This document shows positions 4,494 to 13,810 of a stretch of 23,314 nucleotides of DNA, one piece after another. The translations under genes were made by a program, and so were the position numbers. The stretch is from the IMG/VR virus record IMGVR_UViG_2711768042_000009; one strand, written 5' to 3'. The notes under the pieces are model-generated. The model was not told where the DNA came from, ran no database searches, and was given only the letters and a program-made list of their open reading frames with translations. Origin of the DNA: a virus. Taxonomy: Duplodnaviria > Heunggongvirae > Uroviricota > Caudoviricetes. The number at the start of each line of letters is the position of its first letter. The stretch's first letter is position 1.

Positions 4494-5347
4494 GCACCAT
4501 CCTGAAATGGGCGGGAAATAAAACCGCCATTATGTCCGAACTGAAAAAACACCTTCCTGCTGGCCCGCGACTGGTTGAACCTTTCGCGGGTTCCTGTGCT
4601 GTGATGATGGAGACGGATTACCCCAGCTATCTTGTTGCGGATATTAATCCTGATTTAATCAACCTCTATAAAAAGGTTGCTGCTGATTGTGAGGCGTTTA
4701 TATCTCGTGCCAGAGCTTTATTTGAGGAAGCAAACAGGGAGGTGGCTTATTACAACATAAGGCAGGAGTTTAATTACTCCACTGAAATTACTGATTTCAT
4801 GAAAGCGGTATATTTCCTGTATCTCAATCGTCACGGTTACCGTGGTTTATGTCGCTATAACAAGAGCGGGCATTTCAACATTCCCTACGGTAATTATAAA
4901 AATCCGTATTTCCCTGAAAAAGAACTTCGCACATTTGCAGAAAAAGCCCAGCGAGCAACGTTTATCTGCGCAAGCTTTGATGAAACGCTGGCGATGCTGC
5001 AGGTGGGGGATGTGGTGTATTGCGATCCGCCGTATGACGGTACGTTTTCCGGCTATCACACTGATGGTTTCACTGAAGATGACCAGTATCACCTGGCATC
5101 CGTTCTTGAACATCGGTCATCAGAAGGACATCCGGTCATTGTTTCTAACAGTGATACATCCCTGATCCGTTCGCTGTATCGCAATTTTACTCACCACTAC
5201 ATCAAGGCAAAACGCAGCATCGGTGTAGCAGCTGGTGAGAGTAAATCTGCAACAGAAATCATCGCTGTTTCCGGGCCGCGCTGCTGGGTGGGATTTGATC
5301 CTTCGCGTGGCGTGGATAGTTCTGCCGTGTACGGAGTGCGTGCATGA
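4490..5347 (+). CDS. dam: DNA adenine methyltransferase (Dam family, N6-adenine, GATC-type)
   Basis: Starts [11 protein letters not shown] (Dam N-terminal SAM-binding motif), contains the catalytic DPPY motif ([10 protein letters not shown]). ATGA overlap with upstream gene. Confidence 0.9.
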
Positions 5348-7758
5348 GCCATGCTGATATGAACAACTGCAGCGGCTTTAACGAGGTCGCCGCAGCATTC
5401 TCATGGAACAGCCCGAAAAAGGCCATTAACCCTTATCTGGACCCGGCGGAAGTTGCGCCGGTTTCTGCGCTTTCAAACCTGATCACTCTGTACGCTACCG
5501 ATAACGAGCAGGAACAACTGCGCCGCGAGGTTCTGAGTGATCAGGTATGGGAGCGTTATTTCTTTAATGAATCACGTGATCCTGTCCAGCGCGAAATGGA
5601 GCAGGATGAGCTCATTAGCCGGGCAAAGCTGGCGCATGAGCAGCAGCGTTTTAATCCGGGCATGGTCATTCTGGCGGACGTTAACGCCCAGCCTTCCCAT
5701 ATCAGCAAGCCGCTGATGCAACGTATTGAATACTTCAGCAGCCTGGGCAGGCCAAAGGCTTATTCCCGCTATTTGCGTGAGACGATTAAGCCATGTCTGG
5801 AACGACTGGAGCATGTACGCGACAGTCAGCTATCCACTTCTTTTCGCTTTATGGCAAGCCATGAAGGGCTGGACGGTCTGCTGATCCTGCCTGAAATGAG
5901 TCAGGATCAGGTGAAACGCCTGTCCACCCTGGTAGCTGCGCATATGAGCATGTGCCTTGATGCCGCTTGTGGCGATTTGTATGCCACCGATGACGTTAAG
6001 CCAGAAGAAATCCGCAAGACATGGGAAAAGGTGGCGGCGGAAACCCTGCGACTGGATGTCATACCGCCTGCGTTTGAGCAACTCCGCCGGAAAAGAAACC
6101 GCCGTAAACCCGTGCCCTATGAACTCATTCCGGGGTCGCTGGCGCGTATGCTGTGCGCCGACTGGTGGTATCGGAAATTGTGGAAGATGCGTTGCGAATG
6201 GCGGGAAGAGCAGTTGCGTGCTGTTTGCCTGGTCAGCAAAAAAGCATCTCCCTATGTCAGCTATGAAGCCGTGATGCATAAACGTGAGCAGCGCCGTAAG
6301 TCGCTGGAGTTTTTCCGTTCTCATGAACTGGTGAACGAAGACGGCGACACGCTGGACATGGAGGATGTGGTAAACGCCAGCAGCAGCAACCCTGCGCATC
6401 GCCGCAATGAGATGATGGCCTGTGTTAAAGGTCTGGAGCTTATCGCGGAAATGCGCGGTGACTGCGCCGTTTTCTACACCATCACCTGTCCGTCACGTTT
6501 CCATTCCACGCTAAATAACGGCAGGCCCAACCCGACCTGGACAAATGCGACGGTAAGACAAAGCAGTGATTATCTGGTCGGCATGTTTGCTGCATTTCGT
6601 AAGGCGATGCACAAAGCCGGGTTGCGCTGGTATGGCGTGCGGGTGGCTGAGCCGCATCATGACGGCACAGTTCACTGGCACCTGTTGTGTTTCATGCGCA
6701 AAAAAGACCGCCGCGCCATTACTGCATTGTTGCGTAAGTTTGCTATCCGTGAAGACCGCGAGGAGCTGGGTAATAACACGGGGCCACGCTTTAAGTCTGA
6801 GCTGATAAACCCGCGCAAAGGAACGCCGACTAGCTACATCGCGAAATACATCAGTAAGAACATTGACGGGCGTGGTCTGGCTGGCGAGATCAGCAAGGAA
6901 ACGGGTAAATCTCTGCGTGATAACGCTGAATACGTTAATGCCTGGGCGTCTCTGCATCGTGTTCAGCAATTCCGCTTCTTTGGCATTCCGGGACGTCAGG
7001 CTTACCGTGAACTGCGATTGCTGGCTGGTCAGGCGGCAAGGCAACAGGGTGACAAAAAAGCAGGTGCGCCGGTACTGGATAACCCGCGCCTTGATGCCAT
7101 CCTGGCTGCAGCTGATGCTGGTTGTTTTGCCACCTACATCATGAAGCAGGGCGGCGTACTGGTTCCCCGTAAATATCACCTCATCAGAACCGCTTATGAA
7201 ATCAACGAAGAGCCGACCGCCTATGGCGATCACGGCATTCGTATTTATGGCATCTGGTCACCCATTGCAGAGGGCAAAATCTGCACTCATGCCGTGAAGT
7301 GGAAAATGGTTCGTAAGGCCGTTGACGTTCAGGAGGCGGCAGCCGACCAGGGCGCTTGCGCCCCTTGGACTCGTGGCAATAACTGTCCCCTTGCTGAAAA
7401 TTTGAACCAACAAGGGAAAGATAAATCAGCTGATGGGGATACCAGGACGGGCATTACCCGCATGGATGACAAGGAGTTGCACGATTACCTGCACAGTATG
7501 AGCAAAAAAGAGCGCCGGGAACTGGCAGCAAGGTTACGCCTGGTGAAACCGAAACGGCGTAAAGACTACAAACAGCGAATTACAGACCATCAGCGACTGC
7601 AGCTCGTGTATGAGCTGAAGTCCAGAGGATTTGATGGCAGCGAGAAAGAGGTCGATTTACTCCTTCGCGGAGGCAGTATTCCGTCAGGAGCAGGCCTGCG
7701 TATCTTCTATCGGAACCAGCGTTTGCAAGAAGATGATCAGTGGCGGAACCTGTATTAA
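5344..7758 (+). CDS. A: Replication initiation protein A (P2 gpA-like rolling-circle endonuclease)
   Basis: 804 aa; contains HUH-type metal-binding motif ([10 protein letters not shown]) and catalytic tyrosine motif ([10 protein letters not shown]) characteristic of P2 A / phiX174 A superfamily; position after the early genes matches P2/186. Confidence 0.9.
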
Positions 7759-8344: not shown

Positions 8345-8479
8345 GAAACGTTGCTGGCGTCTGAACTTGCTTCTGGCGTCAGCAAGGTTGAACAACGAGC
8401 CCTTGCGAGGCGTTAGCTCTGTAGTGCATGTCTATGCCGCATGAGATCGCATGATCGTTTGAGGATCGTTTTTGCTAAG

Positions 8480-8503
8480 GCCCGCCAGAACTGGCGGGCT
8501 TTT
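8480..8503 (+). terminator. Rho-independent terminator (GCCCGCCAG-AA-CTGGCGGGC-TTTT)
   Basis: Perfect 9-bp GC-rich stem, 2-nt loop and T-run on the + strand, downstream of the DinI-like gene and upstream of the cos-like sequence. Confidence 0.5.
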
Positions 8504-8548
8504 GCGTAGATCATGCAGGTGCATGAAAACCACTACATAAAGCGAGCA

Positions 8549-8567
8549 GGCGTGGCGGGGATACGAG
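8549..8567. other. Putative cos (cohesive end) site: GGCGTGGCGGGGATACGAG
   Basis: The first 13 nt are identical to the 186 cohesive-end sequence as I recall it (GGCGTGGCGGGGAAAGCAT; P2 is GGCGAGGCGGGGAAAGCAC). It lies between the replication/tum region and the portal/terminase genes, the expected prophage position. From memory, not verified. Confidence 0.45.
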
Positions 8568-8727
8568 CGCGCGCTCGCTAAGCTTTGTAACACATTGAGT
8601 CAAGTCACTTTTTAGACGCAAATGGCTTGCAAACTTTTTCAACATTAAGGTAATTTGTTAGATATTGATGGAAAAAATTAAGACAAGAGCGATTTTCAAT
8701 TGCTTTTGGGTTGACTAGGTGCATGTT

Positions 8728-9834
8728 ATGACAAGTGGTGTCCCAGTGGTGCTTTCTGACTTTGAGTTAAAGTCGATCTTAGCCTTAACTGAACGTTTTA
8801 CGTGGCATATCGCCAGACCAATTATTGCTTCTTTAGGGCTACCTACAGGTAGAGGGCGTGAAGCAACAAACGACAAAATACTAGAAAGCCTCATTGATTT
8901 TAAAAAGAAAGATAGGCAAAAATTTGACAAAATCATTGCAAGTGTAAATGATTTAGTCTTTGGGCAGGTTGTTTATGGTGAAAAAGCAATATTTAGTTTG
9001 TCTGTAGATAGTCAAGTAATTAAATTACTTGATGATAGATATGCTCTCCAATGGAATATGATGAAGCAACCAACATCATTAGTCGAAACGATTGTTGATG
9101 ATGTTCAATTACAGCATGCTATTAAAAATCAACTTGAGCTTGTTAATTACTCTAAGCAAAATACTCAGTCTATTTTGGTATTTTCATCTATCAGGGAGCT
9201 GGTTGTAAGAGAGAAAGTCCCTCCGTCAAAGTTAGCAGCATACAAACAGTTTGATGAAATCATTGCGAAGAGAAAAGAAAAACGTCAGTGTTTTGATGTG
9301 TGTATATTAGATTCAGCTTCAAATAAAATCCATGTATTAATTGATACTAATGGTAATGTTGTTGGTGATAATATCGTTTTTGCGAAAACGAATTTTATTC
9401 GTGAGTTATATAATTGCGCAGGTTATCAATTTAATTCATCGGAAAAGGATTTTTATCCATTAATTGAGCCAATTTTCAAGCAAAATGTAATGCCATATTC
9501 AAGTTTAAGTTATAAGGTGTTCGATTTGTCATTTTTAACTTATGAGGGAACCACTCATAAGGAAAAGAAAAATGTGGCTAAGAAAGACTTGCGTGATGAT
9601 CTGTTTAATAAAGAGGGCATTAAAGCTGTAGGTAATATTGGTTTATATCGTATTGGAATTAGAGTAGATAGGAATAATCCAAAATTGCAATTGGCGGATA
9701 GTGTAGAGCTTATCATTCCAGGAACATTACGCAGACATTTAGGTGGTAGTGGGTGCTCTCCTGTCAATTATGCTATATTAAGCAAATGTATATCCAAAGA
9801 TGATTTCGAAACCCTCACAAAGCTGATATTATAA
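8728..9834 (+). CDS. Cassette gene 1: large hypothetical protein (368 aa), no recognisable motif; candidate sensor/effector of an accessory system
   Basis: ATG 8728 (in-frame GTG at 8719) with RBS AGGTG. AT-rich: I counted 30% G+C in 9001-9060 versus 47% in a terminase sample, 12301-12360. No Walker A motif seen. Stop TAA 9832-9834 is immediately followed by the next gene's RBS. Confidence 0.8.
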   Translation: MTSGVPVVLSDFELKSILALTERFTWHIARPIIASLGLPTGRGREATNDKILESLIDFKKKDRQKFDKIIASVNDLVFGQVVYGEKAIFSLSVDSQVIKLLDDRYALQWNMMKQPTSLVETIVDDVQLQHAIKNQLELVNYSKQNTQSILVFSSIRELVVREKVPPSKLAAYKQFDEIIAKRKEKRQCFDVCILDSASNKIHVLIDTNGNVVGDNIVFAKTNFIRELYNCAGYQFNSSEKDFYPLIEPIFKQNVMPYSSLSYKVFDLSFLTYEGTTHKEKKNVAKKDLRDDLFNKEGIKAVGNIGLYRIGIRVDRNNPKLQLADSVELIIPGTLRRHLGGSGCSPVNYAILSKCISKDDFETLTKLIL

Positions 9835-9846
9835 TTGGAGTCAGCA

Positions 9847-10281
9847 ATGAAGGATGGTGATATGCCCCAGATCATCAAAGAAATATGTGCAGAGCGCCCT
9901 GATATAGGGGCGCTAGCTTGCTATTTGTATGATGAAATTGGTGTGAGAGCAAAGAAATCGCCTAATATAGCTCTGAGTTATAAAGATTTATTTAGTATCG
10001 TTAATGGTTATAAAGGATGTATACAACCTGAAGCATATGAGCAGGTTGTGTACCCAGCTATACAAATTCTTTGTAGTCCAAAGGTTGAGTTTTTAAAACT
10101 CAATTATTGGTTTATTGATGATTTTCATGATCCTATTGAGCTTGAGTTAGAAGATGTTATAGAGGCTGAAATTAATCAATCTTTAGTAAACCCATTTACA
10201 GGGGAGATTATGTATGACTATAAGTCCTTCGTCTTTCCTTTTTTTACATTAGATGAATCTAAATTAAAGGATATTGTCTGA
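9847..10281 (+). CDS. Cassette gene 2: small acidic hypothetical protein (144 aa)
   Basis: ATG 9847 preceded by GGAG at 9837-9840 (in-frame TTG at 9835); AT-rich; stop TGA overlaps the start of gene 3 (TGATG), indicating translational coupling. Confidence 0.75.
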   Translation: MKDGDMPQIIKEICAERPDIGALACYLYDEIGVRAKKSPNIALSYKDLFSIVNGYKGCIQPEAYEQVVYPAIQILCSPKVEFLKLNYWFIDDFHDPIELELEDVIEAEINQSLVNPFTGEIMYDYKSFVFPFFTLDESKLKDIV

Positions 10282-10946
10282 TGTTAAAAATGTCTGCACC
10301 AATGAGTTTAGCTGAAATTGATAATGATATTTTTCTTCAGCGTATCAATGCTTCTATTACTCGCGTTAGGTTTGCTCTCCAGTCGTATGAGAACTTCAAA
10401 CAGTTTGTAAGAATTGAGCTTGATTCTGCTGTACAGGCAATTGAGGAAAATTCAAATAAATTGAATTTTGATTTAACAGAAGATCAGCTTACTTTAATTT
10501 TACTGGCAAATATAAAAAATAAAGATATGGGAATTGAAGCATATCATGAAAATAATCAACGAGGTCATTGTGATATAACAATAAAGTTGAATAGATTTAC
10601 TTGGCATGGCGAGGCCAAAAAACACACTGGTTCATATAGTTATTTATTTAAAGGGTATGCACAACTCACTGAGCGATATAGCACTGGTACTGTAGACAGT
10701 GCAAGTGGTGGGTTAATTATATATACGCGTAATAAAAAATGTAATGAAATGATGACTAAGTGGAAGGCTCATTTAGATAAATCGGCTCCAAGAATTCATG
10801 CTTGTAAGTCTATCTCGATAACTCCTTGTAAGAGAAACCCATTGGTTTTTTACAGTCAACATACTCACACTGTTAGTCAACTTAATTATGAGGTTATACA
10901 CTACCCTGTAAACCTTTATCATGAGCCTGTAGACTCAGAGCTTTGA
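10281..10946 (+). CDS. Cassette gene 3: hypothetical protein with PD-(D/E)xK-like nuclease motif (221 aa)
   Basis: ATG 10281; contains ...GIEAYHENNQRGHCDITIKLNRFTWHGEAKKH..., which fits the E / hhD / ExK signature of restriction-endonuclease-fold nucleases (D and ExK 13 residues apart). Motif-level only. AT-rich, co-oriented with genes 1-2. Confidence 0.75.
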   Translation: MLKMSAPMSLAEIDNDIFLQRINASITRVRFALQSYENFKQFVRIELDSAVQAIEENSNKLNFDLTEDQLTLILLANIKNKDMGIEAYHENNQRGHCDITIKLNRFTWHGEAKKHTGSYSYLFKGYAQLTERYSTGTVDSASGGLIIYTRNKKCNEMMTKWKAHLDKSAPRIHACKSISITPCKRNPLVFYSQHTHTVSQLNYEVIHYPVNLYHEPVDSEL

Positions 10947-10981
10947 ATATGATTTTTGTTAGTTTTATAACTATATAATGT

Positions 10982-11005
10982 AAAAACCTGCATATGCAGG
11001 TTTTT
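10982..11005. terminator. Bidirectional rho-independent terminator (AAAAACCTGCATATGCAGGTTTTT)
   Basis: Perfect palindrome ACCTGCA-TA-TGCAGGT flanked by an A-run and a T-run, in the 63-bp gap between the convergent cassette gene 3 (+) and portal gene (-). Confidence 0.6.
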
Positions 11006-11009
11006 AAGA

Positions 11010-12047
11010 TTATTGAATATCTAAGTTATAATCCTCAAAATGTATTACATCCTCCTTTAACCAGTTGTTCAGCTCTAATAGGCTCTTTTGTAGTGGCCTC
11101 AATTCATTTCGCACAAAAACTCGACTCGCCTTCTCCACATCCCCAAAACCCCCAACATTATTCGGCATAATCCCCATCATTTGCGGCGGTACGCGGTGTG
11201 CTGCCATCATGTCATCGCGACTGACATTTTTGATATTCAGAAACTCATCCTTCGCCGCGACTTCTGACAGAGGAATGATCTGAAGCCCGTCCTTTTTGCC
11301 GTTAGGCGAGTACATAAACAGGTTGCGGAAGTTGCCTGGACCTTTGGCGCTTTTCATCGCGTTGCGGAGGTTGTTCACATCCTCCTGATTCTGCGCGGCG
11401 TCGGTCATGTACATGATGAAGCCTGCATGGCTGCCGTTGATGTAATACTTACGGCGGAACAGCGTGGCGGATTCGTTGAGCAGGGCGGATGGAATGGCAG
11501 AAAGATAGCCGGGCAAGCCGTAGATCTCCTGGTTGATGTCCGGTTCCATCAGATGAAAAATGCTGCCTTTCGTGAACTGATACGGCTGGGTTGTCATACC
11601 GTATTGCACAAACCAGTAGGTATCCAGGTCTAACCCGCGTCGGGTGTATTTTGCCAGCGCAGGCTCAAGGGCGATAACTTCACCGAAGCGGTTCGTGCGT
11701 TTCTCCAGGTAGGCGTTACCAAATACCAGGTAGTCCTGCACAAAACGTGAAAAAGCCTGCTGGCTGAGCAGCGGGTGAGGGATATAGGTACTGGTCAGAA
11801 TGTTGCACTTTACTGCAATCGGGGAACTGTGATGCACGGCAGCGCGGAAGGTGCGCGCCAGTCCGTCAAAGCTGACGGGCGGCTCATACCAACGGTCCAT
11901 CTGTACGCATTCCACATAGTCCAGTAATTCTCGGCGGTCCAGAACAGGAACGGGATCGCCGAAGCTGAATGCTTCGGCTGTAGTTTGACTTTTAAGCTGG
12001 ATCTGATTCGTCGCCGCAGCGCGGTTCTTCTTACTCTTTCCCATCAA
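11010..12047 (-). CDS. Q: Portal protein (P2 gpQ-like)
   Basis: 345 aa, size and position (downstream of and overlapping the terminase large subunit on the minus strand) match P2 Q (344 aa); sequence recognised as P2-family portal. Confidence 0.9.
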   Translation of the reverse strand: MMGKSKKNRAAATNQIQLKSQTTAEAFSFGDPVPVLDRRELLDYVECVQMDRWYEPPVSFDGLARTFRAAVHHSSPIAVKCNILTSTYIPHPLLSQQAFSRFVQDYLVFGNAYLEKRTNRFGEVIALEPALAKYTRRGLDLDTYWFVQYGMTTQPYQFTKGSIFHLMEPDINQEIYGLPGYLSAIPSALLNESATLFRRKYYINGSHAGFIMYMTDAAQNQEDVNNLRNAMKSAKGPGNFRNLFMYSPNGKKDGLQIIPLSEVAAKDEFLNIKNVSRDDMMAAHRVPPQMMGIMPNNVGGFGDVEKASRVFVRNELRPLQKSLLELNNWLKEDVIHFEDYNLDIQ

Positions 12048-13810
12048 AAAATCTCCACAATATTGCTGGCATTGGCGGATTCGCCCTGCAGCGGTTCGTT
12101 AAACAGTGCGTGCATCGTTGCCCAGGCCAGATCGGCGTGGCTGGCTTCTTCGCTGCGGCTGGCTTCATAGGTCGGGCGGTTGCCGCTGGCGGTGGTAGCG
12201 CGACGGATTGCCATAAATGATTGCGCAATGTCGGTGTGCCCGGCGTCAAACTCCAGACGGCGGTGGCTGATAATGTCGTAGGCCTTGAGCACCAGGGCGT
12301 TTTTAACGTTGGGGTTGTAGACAAACTCCCGGACGGCAGGAAAGAATGCTTTCACGTTCTCGTAAACCCCGTGACCAACGCCGGTTGAGTCGATACCGAT
12401 ATAAGTCACGTTGTACTGTTCGGTCAGTTTTTTGATGGCGTCAGCCTGAGCGCGGAAGTCCATCCCGCGCCACTGGTGACGCTCAAGAATGCGGAATTTA
12501 CCGCCCGGTACGGCTGGCGGTGCCACCACCACGCATCCGGCACTGTCGCCGTTCTGAGTACCTTTTGCGGGGTCATAACCGATCCATACTTCGCGCCAGC
12601 CAAACGGGCGCAGGGCCAGTGCATGAAAGTCGGTCCAGACTTCCCAACTGTCCACCATGCACGCCTGCAGTTCGCTGAGCGGGAACACGGACGCGAGATC
12701 GTCCACGAACTCACACATCAGCAGGTTCTGGTATTCGTCCGGGCTGTATTCCATGCGCAACTGGTCAAGGTCGAACAGGTTACAGCCGCCGCGCACCGCA
12801 TCTTCCACGGTGACTATCTGGCGGTATTGTCCGTCTGCGCACAGCAGGCCGGGGGCCAGATTGCTGTGGGACAGGTCGATGTCCACCTTATCGGCTTTGT
12901 TGCGCCCACGGTTGAACAGCGCACCGGACCAGAACGGATAAGCACTGTGTGTCAGGCTGGATGGCGTGGAAAAATAGGTCTGTCGCCATTTTTTGTGAAT
13001 AGCCATACCGGAAGCCACTTTGCGCAGCTCCTGGAATTTCGGTATCCAGAAATATTCATCCAGATACAGGTTGCCGTGATAACTCTGGGCCGTGCGGGCA
13101 TTGGTGCCGAGGAAGTAAAGCGTGGCCCCGTTAGGAAGCACCATCGGATCGCCTTTCAGCTCCACCTCCACTTCTTTAGCGAAGTCGATGATGTACTGCT
13201 TAAAGACGTGGGCCTGTGCCTTGCTGGCGGAAAGGAAAATCTGGTTACGTCCGGTAAGCAGAGCGTCAATCAGGGCTTCACGGGCAAAGTAAAAGGTCGC
13301 GCCGATCTGGCGTGACTTCAGCAGGTTGCGGATGCGGTTGGTTTTTCCGGCTTCCCACCAGTGGCGCTGGTAGTTGAACATGGAGGAATGGAAGATTTCT
13401 TCCAGCTTCTCAATCTGCTCATCGGTGAAAACATTCTTTTCCGGCTGACGGCGCGGGCCTTTGTTGCGGTTGGCGACGTTAGGGTTTAAGTCGGCTTCGT
13501 TGCCGCCATTGTTAAACTTGCCGATCCGCGCGTGGCGTTCCGACTGGCGCGCCAGCAGGTCAATCTCTTTGAAATCTTTCCCTTCTTTGTGCTCCTTCAT
13601 AATGAGCTGGCAGTAGCGTGCGGCGGTGGTGAGCTGCATCTGATCCAGCGGCCCATAGTCACCCCACTTGTCGCGTTTTTTCCAGCTGTGAACGGTTGCA
13701 ACTTTCTCGCCCAGCATTTCAGCAATGCGGGCTACGCGGTATCCCTGAAAGTACAGCAGCATGGCCTGCCGACGGGGATCGAGATCTGCGGGTGTCAGTG
13801 TGGTGTTCAT
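12044..13810 (-). CDS. P: Terminase large (ATPase) subunit (P2 gpP-like)
   Basis: 588 aa (P2 P is 590 aa); divergent from the O-N-M-L operon as in P2; stop overlaps Q start. Confidence 0.9.
   Translation of the reverse strand: MNTTLTPADLDPRRQAMLLYFQGYRVARIAEMLGEKVATVHSWKKRDKWGDYGPLDQMQLTTAARYCQLIMKEHKEGKDFKEIDLLARQSERHARIGKFNNGGNEADLNPNVANRNKGPRRQPEKNVFTDEQIEKLEEIFHSSMFNYQRHWWEAGKTNRIRNLLKSRQIGATFYFAREALIDALLTGRNQIFLSASKAQAHVFKQYIIDFAKEVEVELKGDPMVLPNGATLYFLGTNARTAQSYHGNLYLDEYFWIPKFQELRKVASGMAIHKKWRQTYFSTPSSLTHSAYPFWSGALFNRGRNKADKVDIDLSHSNLAPGLLCADGQYRQIVTVEDAVRGGCNLFDLDQLRMEYSPDEYQNLLMCEFVDDLASVFPLSELQACMVDSWEVWTDFHALALRPFGWREVWIGYDPAKGTQNGDSAGCVVVAPPAVPGGKFRILERHQWRGMDFRAQADAIKKLTEQYNVTYIGIDSTGVGHGVYENVKAFFPAVREFVYNPNVKNALVLKAYDIISHRRLEFDAGHTDIAQSFMAIRRATTASGNRPTYEASRSEEASHADLAWATMHALFNEPLQGESANASNIVEIF

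Follow-up and report, generated by a model that had tools for sequence, protein, structure and literature searches.

A three-gene cassette at the P2 prophage hotspot is, by homology, a divergent member of the DS-21 anti-phage family

DS-21 is a three-gene system that was validated in the DefensePredictor study (DeWeirdt et al., Science 2026, PMC13092281; bioRxiv 10.1101/2025.01.08.631726). Its proteins DS-21A, DS-21B and DS-21C contain 365, 140 and 211 amino acids (WP_001532221, WP_021552536 and WP_001557682), and the system carries the working identifier TOXO; it is listed in the 'hit_proteins' table and, as MG1655 pCV1-TOXO, in the strain list, and is absent from the main text (PMC13092281). 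DS-21 protects E. coli against BASEL phages, with −log10 EOP values of 4.48 for Bas1 and 2.0 for Bas11, and gives smaller plaques for Bas3, Bas9, Bas67 and T3 (PMC13092281). No mechanism has been published for DS-21, and full-text searches with the WP accessions, with DS-21 and with RdgC plus anti-phage defence gave no mechanistic follow-up.

The cassette investigated here is encoded in a 23,314-nucleotide stretch of viral DNA (IMG/VR record IMGVR_UViG_2711768042_000009; hereafter the window), where it separates a cos-like site from the portal gene of a P2/186-like E. coli prophage. Its three genes (Table 1), whose products we call A, B and C, are co-oriented and packed head to tail as initially annotated, and RefSeq contains the same three coding sequences as our open reading frame calls. 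The mechanically called frames of genes 1 and 2 start slightly upstream of the ATG codons used here, at GTG 8719 and TTG 9835, respectively. The predicted ribosome-binding site and the overlap were also found where they had been described: the stop codon of gene 1 (TAA, 9832–9834) is followed by GGAG and then, 12 nt downstream of the stop, by the ATG of gene 2, and genes 2 and 3 overlap by 1 nt in the sequence TGATG at 10279–10283. Recounting the earlier G+C figures of 30% and 47% gave 30.0% at positions 9001–9060 and 46.7% at 12301–12360, and the complete cassette has a G+C content of 34.2% versus 52.4% in the rest of the window. Comparison with a variant of about 85% DNA identity resulted in dN/dS ratios of 0.13, 0.14 and 0.06 for genes 1, 2 and 3, which indicates that all three are real genes under purifying selection.

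Table 1. Position and features of the cassette and of its neighbours in the window.
Feature	Position	Strand	Description
Replication endonuclease A	5344-7758		upstream neighbour of cassette
Terminator-like hairpin	8474-8512	+	GGCCCGCCAG-AACU-CUGGCGGGCC then UUUUG; left boundary of cargo region
cos-like site	8549-8573	.	GGCGTGGCGGGGATACGAGCGCGCG; pattern match GGCGTGGCGGGG at 8549; P2/186-type prophage
Candidate sigma-70 promoter	8627-8656	+	TTGCAA, 17-18 nt spacer, GTAATT/TAATTT; weak, inferred
Gene 1 (A)	8728-9834	+	368 aa from ATG; pI 8.9; RefSeq CDS WP_021580613
Gene 2 (B)	9847-10281	+	144 aa from ATG; pI 4.4; RefSeq CDS WP_021580614
Gene 3 (C)	10281-10946	+	221 aa; RefSeq CDS
Bidirectional terminator-like palindrome	~10981-11006	.	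AAAAACCTGCATATGCAGGTTTTT; between gene 3 and convergent portal gene Q
Portal Q	11010-12047	minus	downstream neighbour of cassette

Each protein of the window trio matched its positional counterpart in DS-21 alone when the two sets were compared by BLASTP. The match was strongest for C (34% identity over 217 amino acids, spanning the full length of the protein; 107 bits), followed by A (24% over 190 amino acids) and B (20% over 98 amino acids, 33.9 bits), the last being weak but reciprocal. Alignment of the A profile with DS-21A by hhalign gave a probability of 95.2 (E = 2.9e-8, 179 columns) that covers the C-terminal half only; the N-terminal halves could be aligned neither by BLAST nor by hhalign. 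Intermediate family members connect B with DS-21B, as does a motif common to their C-terminal parts, (H/N)P-x-(S/T)G-x-x-(V/M)-x-(D/N)(F/Y)...FP(F/Y)F. Homology to the DS-21 family was thus found for A, B and C, and the cassette shares with DS-21 the co-oriented A-B-C order, protein lengths within the family ranges (about 350–390, 130–160 and 205–250 amino acids), an identical PD-(D/E)xK site in C, and a rare occurrence on E. coli prophages (21 versus 12 of 5426 complete genomes). The two differ in that identities are merely 34% (C), 24% (A) and 20% (B), and in location, with the window clade residing in the P2 cos–Q hotspot and DS-21 adjoining the antiterminator gene Q of lambdoid prophages.

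By these alignments the cassette is a divergent member of the DS-21 family and not an undescribed kind of system. The initial annotation, which had regarded it as an undescribed candidate defence system, therefore fails on the first point, as A, B and C are each homologous to the protein at the corresponding position of an already validated system. Moreover, gene 1 itself (WP_021580613) is recorded as a 'Predicted novel defense gene' in Table S10 of the DefensePredictor study (PMC13092281), and the trio is found in Table S5 of Rousset et al. (2022), where it is catalogued as loci outside the tested systems. On the second point the annotation gains support: the homology to DS-21 and the log-odds score of 8.4 for gene 1, at a strict DefensePredictor cut-off of 4 (PMC13092281), make the cassette a strong defence candidate. 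DS-21 was assayed against Bas1 and Bas11, whereas defence by the window clade is a computational prediction, and because its identity to DS-21 is merely 20–34%, its activity and phage range are extrapolated.

The cassette had also been described as bracketed by a terminator and a cos-like site upstream and by a bidirectional terminator downstream, which was borne out by RNA folding and a match to the cos-like pattern. The upstream hairpin folds with a dG of −23.6 kcal/mol (z = −5.5; none of 200 shuffled sequences was as stable) and is predicted to be a terminator-like element that ends an upstream DinI-like transcription unit. The palindrome between gene 3 and the portal gene folds on both strands, with a dG of about −14 kcal/mol and z-scores of −4.9 and −5.4. 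A simple consensus scan flagged neither hairpin as a terminator, the upstream one being missed because its T-run is short, and returned no convincing promoter. At the candidate promoter, the window, the ~85% variant and two IMG/VR loci have the conserved block GGCTTGCAAAyTTTTTCAACATTrAGGTAAyTTG in common, while the bases around it vary. From P2 and 186 biology we take the cos-like site to be a functional cos. Its motif is also present, as the reverse complement, in pFR109, a cloned P2-hotspot fragment (Rousset et al., 2022). The sole methylase nearby is a backbone DNA adenine methylase upstream of the replication endonuclease gene A, which a related prophage carrying other genes at its hotspot encodes as well.

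Only 21 of 5426 complete E. coli genomes carry the cassette whereas 1246 carry the flanking portal gene, and about 1.7% of the prophages with the portal type of the window contain it. As had been proposed, the cassette belongs to the variable cargo of the P2 hotspot and not to the core phage genes. By megablast the cassette had no match in the phage collection, and relatives there were traced by tblastn instead. Among about 90 loci, nearly all (about 85 independent ones) have the genes in A-B-C order, with identities of C down to about 30%. Besides the P2 hotspot, the trio was detected in a P4-like satellite, beside Q (and stx) in lambdoid prophages, and in a chromosomal island that also encodes a WYL regulator. 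These locations bear on whether the genes might serve a purpose other than defence, such as a role in the phage life cycle (DNA processing near cos or modulation of RecA and the SOS response), or might constitute a selfish addiction module or an inert hitch-hiker. The cassette does adjoin cos and a DinI-like gene, and modulation of RecA by an RdgC-like protein is conceivable. We nevertheless consider these explanations highly improbable, given the low carriage among prophages with this portal, the occurrence of the trio at unrelated positions, the purifying selection on all three genes, and the phage resistance that the homologue DS-21 confers from a plasmid in prophage-free MG1655. The cassette occupies the same genomic niche as P2 tin/old and other P2-hotspot cargo and presumably has the same ecological role in inter-phage competition, but its proteins are unrelated to those of tin/old (Tin by sequence comparison; no OLD or ATPase domains were found).

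The initial annotation had further mentioned a three-hypothetical-protein system from P2 hotspots. That system is 3HP (hp+hp+hp; Rst_3HP on pFR109, from E. coli E1114), which is protective against P1 (Rousset et al., 2022). It resembles our cassette in its hotspot, in consisting of three unannotated proteins and in the length of its last gene product (226 versus 221 amino acids). However, BLASTP against the three pFR109 proteins yielded a best E value of 1.5 with no consistent pairing, and the pFR109 genes encode 341, 362 and 226 amino acids, so that the middle product is 362 rather than 144 residues long. With the proteins unrelated, identity with 3HP is refuted at the sequence level and we give it practically no chance. 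The cassette is absent from the tested and validated systems in Tables S2A and S2B of Rousset et al. (2022), and the DS-21 accessions were not among the entries listed from that supplement.

Searches against other collections gave no named system, consistent with the earlier failure to connect the cassette with a named system. PADLOC-DB v2.0.0, a library from 2023 that predates DS-21, contained no family matching the window proteins at E ≤ 1 or the divergent A, B and C relatives tested at E ≤ 0.1. Pfam and NCBIfam gave no matches for the three proteins, PHROGs gave matches to families of unknown function only, and PDB sequence searches with the A, B and C profiles gave none. Type II restriction-modification was rejected, as none of the three genes encodes a methyltransferase. 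Lamassu was considered as well, since HHpred analysis by the DefensePredictor authors matched DS-21C to LmuA_effector_PDDEXK with a probability of 94.7 (PMC13092281); the cassette has no LmuB SMC-like or ATPase gene, the PADLOC search was empty, and this candidate was also discarded. The P4 systems Crouga, Bandua, Aernus, Toga, Reve and Hailong (Moura de Sousa, 2026) are a misfit, set apart by their descriptions.

The nuclease-like motif initially noticed in gene 3 proved to be real and invariant throughout the family. By structural and sequence comparison C, the homologue of DS-21C, is a BamHI-like PD-(D/E)xK nuclease and the proposed effector. Its active site (D98/E111/K113) is intact, and these three residues belong to a set that is invariant across the family, DS-21C included (E67, D68, H89, H96, D98, E111, K113, Q128, R132 and Y133). 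Sequence identity to endonucleases of the BamHI/OkrAI/BglII type and to NucC, HamA and McrC is 8–16%, and unlike the systems of these enzymes the cassette has no methyltransferase, cyclic-nucleotide synthase, helicase or GTPase partner. The C family comprises 578 clusters and includes fusions in which the C domain forms the C-terminus of NACHT/NB-ARC-HEAT (NLR-like) proteins. These fusions keep D98/E111/K113 and nearly all other conserved site residues (two single substitutions). The window system thus has a nuclease domain, with its catalytic residues, in common with NLR-like STAND defence proteins (NACHT/NB-ARC, repeats and effector), but it lacks the NTPase and the repeats, and its nuclease is a separate polypeptide beside A and B.

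For A, the homologue of DS-21A, two methods pointed to an RdgC-type fold, although the TM-scores against RdgC were low (0.32–0.45). No likeness was detectable at the sequence level: hhalign of A with E. coli RdgC and lambda RexA gave a probability of 0.1, and no Pfam match was obtained. RexA was not among the structural matches listed for A. The protein is basic, and its family has few conserved residues, almost none of them invariant in a manner that would suggest an enzymatic effector. DNA binding by A is a guess from the fold, because sequence similarity to RdgC or RexA is lacking and the TM-scores are low; we propose that A may be a nucleic-acid-binding sensor. A prophage-encoded protein of this predicted fold recalls lambda RexA/RexB and the RdgC/RexA/Iml3-Chl4 fold group. 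Unlike in RexA/RexB, the partners here would be a soluble nuclease and a small adaptor and not a RexB-type membrane protein. No RexB-type multi-pass membrane partner was found among A, B and C in a test made through family matches, with B and C matching neither RexB nor any other family.

The product of gene 2 is small, acidic and translationally coupled to C, and alignment of its family, which takes in DS-21B, revealed no conserved functional residues. The alignment also takes in the C-terminus of a TIR-transmembrane (TIR-2TM) protein: in one relative (L005) A is absent and B is fused to this protein just upstream of the C homologue. The best match of the TIR-2TM partner in the defence library is ThsB of Thoeris. 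Replacement of A by a TIR protein can also be read as placing A in the effector role. We propose that B is an adaptor or restraint that docks onto C.

The layout of genes 2 and 3 would also suit a toxin-antitoxin-like abortive module in which C is a DNase toxin and B its antitoxin, phage infection removes or titrates B and so leaves C free to kill the cell, and A merely regulates or stabilises the pair. A small acidic protein (pI 4.4) whose gene overlaps that of its partner in a TGATG is a classic antitoxin-toxin arrangement, the B-C pair is intact even where TIR-2TM replaces A, and the structural neighbours of C include CdiA-CT DNase toxins. We consider this explanation unlikely all the same. 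That about 85 of the roughly 90 loci retain A, and that its gene is under purifying selection, implies that A is not dispensable. The NACHT-HEAT-C fusions carry C without a separately recognisable B, which suggests that the sensor scaffold controls the nuclease there rather than a labile antitoxin. Fusion of B to a membrane TIR protein is likewise untypical of a labile antitoxin.

We favour, with a probability of roughly 0.6, a prophage-borne DS-21-family anti-phage operon in which A is the sensor, B couples A to C or restrains C, and C cuts DNA; these roles are inferred solely from the folds and the domain swaps. In a lysogen the operon would be transcribed from its own candidate promoter. 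A, probably as a dimer, may act as the sensor by binding DNA or an intermediate of phage replication or recombination, with B physically linking A to C and probably holding C inactive. Sensing would then free or activate C for DNA cleavage. Cutting of phage DNA would block replication, and if host DNA is cut too, the infection would be aborted. By analogy with DS-21, the expected targets may include T1-like siphoviruses.

The domain swaps might be taken to argue for reversed roles, with C sensing a structure, an end or a modification of phage DNA and A acting as the effector, perhaps a clamp of the RdgC type that keeps phage DNA from replicating or recombining and can be exchanged for other effectors such as TIR NADases. 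Effectors are the most often swapped parts of modular defence systems, TIR domains are frequent effectors and one takes the place of A in L005, and RdgC inhibits RecA functions by binding DNA (PMC11077077). Against this, ThsB, the best match of the TIR partner, is the sensor and signal-generating TIR of Thoeris, and in the NACHT-HEAT-C fusions C is located at one terminus of a STAND NTPase whose repeats occupy the sensor position. In addition, the catalytic residues of C are invariant, whereas A is almost devoid of invariant residues suggestive of an enzyme. Role reversal is therefore decidedly improbable.

More tentatively, the sensor-adaptor-effector reading may be extended to a specific mechanism, in which A would be an RdgC-fold DNA clamp of a new kind, recognising intermediates of phage replication or recombination and licensing the BamHI-like nuclease via the acidic adaptor. 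B-C, an adaptor with its nuclease, would then be a portable effector cassette plugged into at least three types of sensor, namely the RdgC-like A, a membrane TIR protein and, by direct fusion to C, NACHT-HEAT NLRs. Unlike lambda RexA, a proposed detector of such intermediates, A would not open a membrane channel. If true, an RdgC clamp combined with a portable B-C pair would be a mechanistic class undescribed for any defence system.

Specialists would expect to meet such a system in a P2 hotspot, and carriers of the family now include P2-like phages, a P4-like satellite, lambdoid phages (Stx1a-converting ones among them) and chromosomal islands. One more unannotated P2-hotspot cargo can be assigned to an experimentally validated defence family. 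The predicted RdgC fold of A, the defined active site of the BamHI-like C, and the NLR-like and TIR links provide testable starting points for the mechanism of DS-21, and can guide the choice of residues for mutagenesis, of partners for pull-downs and of the first phages for challenge.

The window comes from a P2/186-like prophage whose host is E. coli. The initial annotation had described three translationally coupled ORFs of 368, 144 and 221 amino acids, bracketed by a terminator and cos-like site upstream and a bidirectional terminator downstream. All of these features were recovered (see table). The gene 1 (A) stop codon is separated by 12 nt containing GGAG from the ATG of gene 2 (B), which overlaps gene 3 (C) as TGATG. 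The earlier composition counts of 30% and 47% were exact (30.0% G+C at 9001-9060 versus 46.7% at 12301-12360), and the whole cassette has 34.2% G+C versus 52.4% for the remainder of the window. Using 8600-11010 as query, 100% identity was found to several complete chromosomes with the gene order int-cI-cII-...-Dam-like methylase-replication endonuclease A-small ORF-DinI-like gene, three hypothetical genes, convergent portal Q and terminase P. Upstream of gene 1, the block GGCTTGCAAAyTTTTTCAACATTrAGGTAA is kept among diverged variants, and an imperfect inverted repeat (AAGAGCrAT...ATTGCTTTT) lies within the putative 5' leader; these elements may represent a promoter plus either an operator or a hairpin of the leader.

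Features of the window cassette and coordinates of related loci
Feature	Position	Size	Remark
Stable hairpin	8474-8512		upstream of cassette
cos-like GGCGTGGCGGGG	8549		between hairpin and cassette
Conserved block and inverted repeat	8627-8712		upstream of gene 1
Gene 1 (A)	8728-9834	368 aa	ORF, + strand
Gene 2 (B)	9847-10281	144 aa	ORF, + strand
Gene 3 (C)	10281-10946	221 aa	ORF, + strand
Palindromic, bidirectional terminator-like hairpin	~10981-11006		downstream of cassette
Hotspot of E. coli ECONIH4	L002:5426-7416		~85% variant
Two-gene variant	L005:2765-4764		JGI metagenome 3300064044
Providencia manganoxydans trio	L006:6443-8666		P4-like satellite
Stx1a phage trio	L014:3475-5582	350+130+221 aa	opposite strand, between Q and stx1AB

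None of the three proteins had a match in PADLOC v2, Pfam or NCBIfam, and the three PHROGs families that match them carry no functional annotation. The exact proteins are catalogued as hypothetical + hypothetical + hypothetical among P2 hotspot loci (Rousset 2022, Table S5) and are absent from the tested systems (Tables S2A, S2B). Identity with 3HP, the validated 'hp+hp+hp' system pFR109, was rejected: its proteins of 341, 362 and 226 aa (Rousset 2022), as opposed to 368, 144 and 221 aa, have no similarity to those of the window. Gene 1 is WP_021580613 (strain STEC384), listed as 'Predicted novel defense gene' with a mean log-odds of 8.4, against a strict cut-off of 4, in the DefensePredictor supplement (Science 2026, PMC13092281). 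The cassette had already been flagged computationally, and its location is one at which cargo of this kind is expected.

The same study validated DS-21, a three-gene unit (working id TOXO in the validated hit protein table) with proteins of 365, 140 and 211 aa, close in size to those of the cassette (PMC13092281). Each window protein matches its positional DS-21 counterpart only. C is 34% identical to DS-21C over 217 aa (107 bits); A is 24% identical to DS-21A over 190 aa (profile comparison probability 95.2, E 2.9e-8, covering its C-terminal half only); and B is 20% identical to DS-21B over 98 aa, a pair bridged by intermediate homologues. By sequence homology to this validated defence system, the cassette is a divergent member of the DS-21 family, with a predicted role in defence. 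Calling the system undescribed was only partly right, in view of this homology and the earlier prediction of gene 1. Bas1-13 of the BASEL collection are T1-like Drexlerviridae. DS-21 in MG1655 lowered plating of Bas1 by ~10^4.5 and of Bas11 by 10^2, and plaques of Bas3, Bas9, Bas67 and T3 were smaller (PMC13092281). The main text of that paper does not discuss DS-21, and our literature search found no mechanistic follow-up. A cassette function other than defence is less well supported.

Of 5426 complete E. coli genomes, 1246 contain the portal gene of the backbone, compared with 21 for the cassette (12 near-identical, 9 at ~85%); therefore the counter-proposal in the initial annotation, that these are conserved core genes of 186-like phages, fails. 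The cassette is cargo, not core. Because dN/dS between the window and the ~85% DNA variant from the 9 other genomes is 0.13, 0.14 and 0.06 for genes 1, 2 and 3, all three genes are functional. Between the window and L002, dS is 0.61-0.84 for the cassette (8728-10946), roughly double the value of 0.36 for the neighbouring portal gene (11010-12047), consistent with different histories of cargo and backbone. Strains with the ~85% variant, such as ECONIH4, carry in the same hotspot, upstream of the trio, another small hypothetical gene and a DUF6694 lipoprotein gene, the latter apparently split by an IS1 element whose transposase has annotated DUF6694 fragments to its left and right; more than one cargo can therefore accumulate in this hotspot. 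The ~85% variant is also present in E. coli MS 115-1, source strain of the structure of the CBASS nuclease NucC (PDB 6p7p), which shows weak structural similarity to the gene 3 product.

Scanning the C-family alignment against IMG/VR identified 124 viral contigs. At fetched loci with sufficient upstream DNA, the order A (350-392 aa), B (129-161 aa), C (206-252 aa) was found in nearly all, with C identity down to ~30%. The trio occurs in P2-like prophages (the window, Klebsiella phage KP12), in Acinetobacter and Moraxella phages and in a Citrobacter island adjoining a WYL regulator. A trio 40-54% identical to that of the window lies in Providencia manganoxydans within a P4-like satellite (integrase, Toprim primase, Psu, Ogr/Delta), and one family is therefore found in P2-like phages as well as in a satellite of P4 type. 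This contrasts with a 2026 survey reporting that defence genes are almost never exchanged between P2 and P4 (PMC13586616). DS-21 itself adjoins the antiterminator Q gene in lambdoid prophages of 12 E. coli genomes. Seven Stx1a-converting phages (Stx1_499 and six relatives) carry a related trio between Q and stx1AB, so that the family has a second home at the lambdoid late-gene moron position. The A-B-C trio is conserved and mobile.

An exhaustive profile search assigned 578 clusters to the C family, of which 144 reach E <= 1e-30. Most members are standalone proteins of ~210 aa, and the window C is an intact nuclease. In several proteins of 700-1226 aa, among them P0108, P0137, P0151, P0155, P0164, P0167, P0218, P0217 and P0130 (712-1226 aa), the C domain occupies the extreme C-terminus behind NACHT or NB-ARC plus HEAT repeats. 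The D98/E111/K113 triad is intact in these proteins and almost every other site residue is kept, the sole changes being D68N (P0218) and H89R (P0217). They look like NLR-like defence proteins, architectures in which a terminal nuclease of this sort is the effector.

With a pI of 4.4, B is acidic, and it lacks conserved polar residues. In the two-gene variant, on a 9.3-kb phage-like contig, a 458-aa protein carries the entire B domain (327-456) at its C-terminus. It also has a TIR domain at 79-199, matched best by ThsB in the defence library, and a hydrophobic segment at ~232-293 that by eye resembles two membrane helices. The TIR-B gene overlaps the beginning of a homologue of C that shares 37% identity with gene 3, and no A gene is present. 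B and C form a constant pair; a toxin-antitoxin-like B/C pair with A as an accessory is less well supported than a three-part pathway. In that pathway A, which has an RdgC fold, would sense a nucleic-acid feature of infection, B would couple A to C and probably restrain it, and C would degrade DNA. The NACHT-HEAT-C fusions fit a variable sensor with a constant nuclease effector, and so does the ThsB-like TIR-B fusion. A reversal of the roles of A and C has less support. These observations provide mechanistic leads for the DS-21 family, which has a phenotype but lacks a mechanism.
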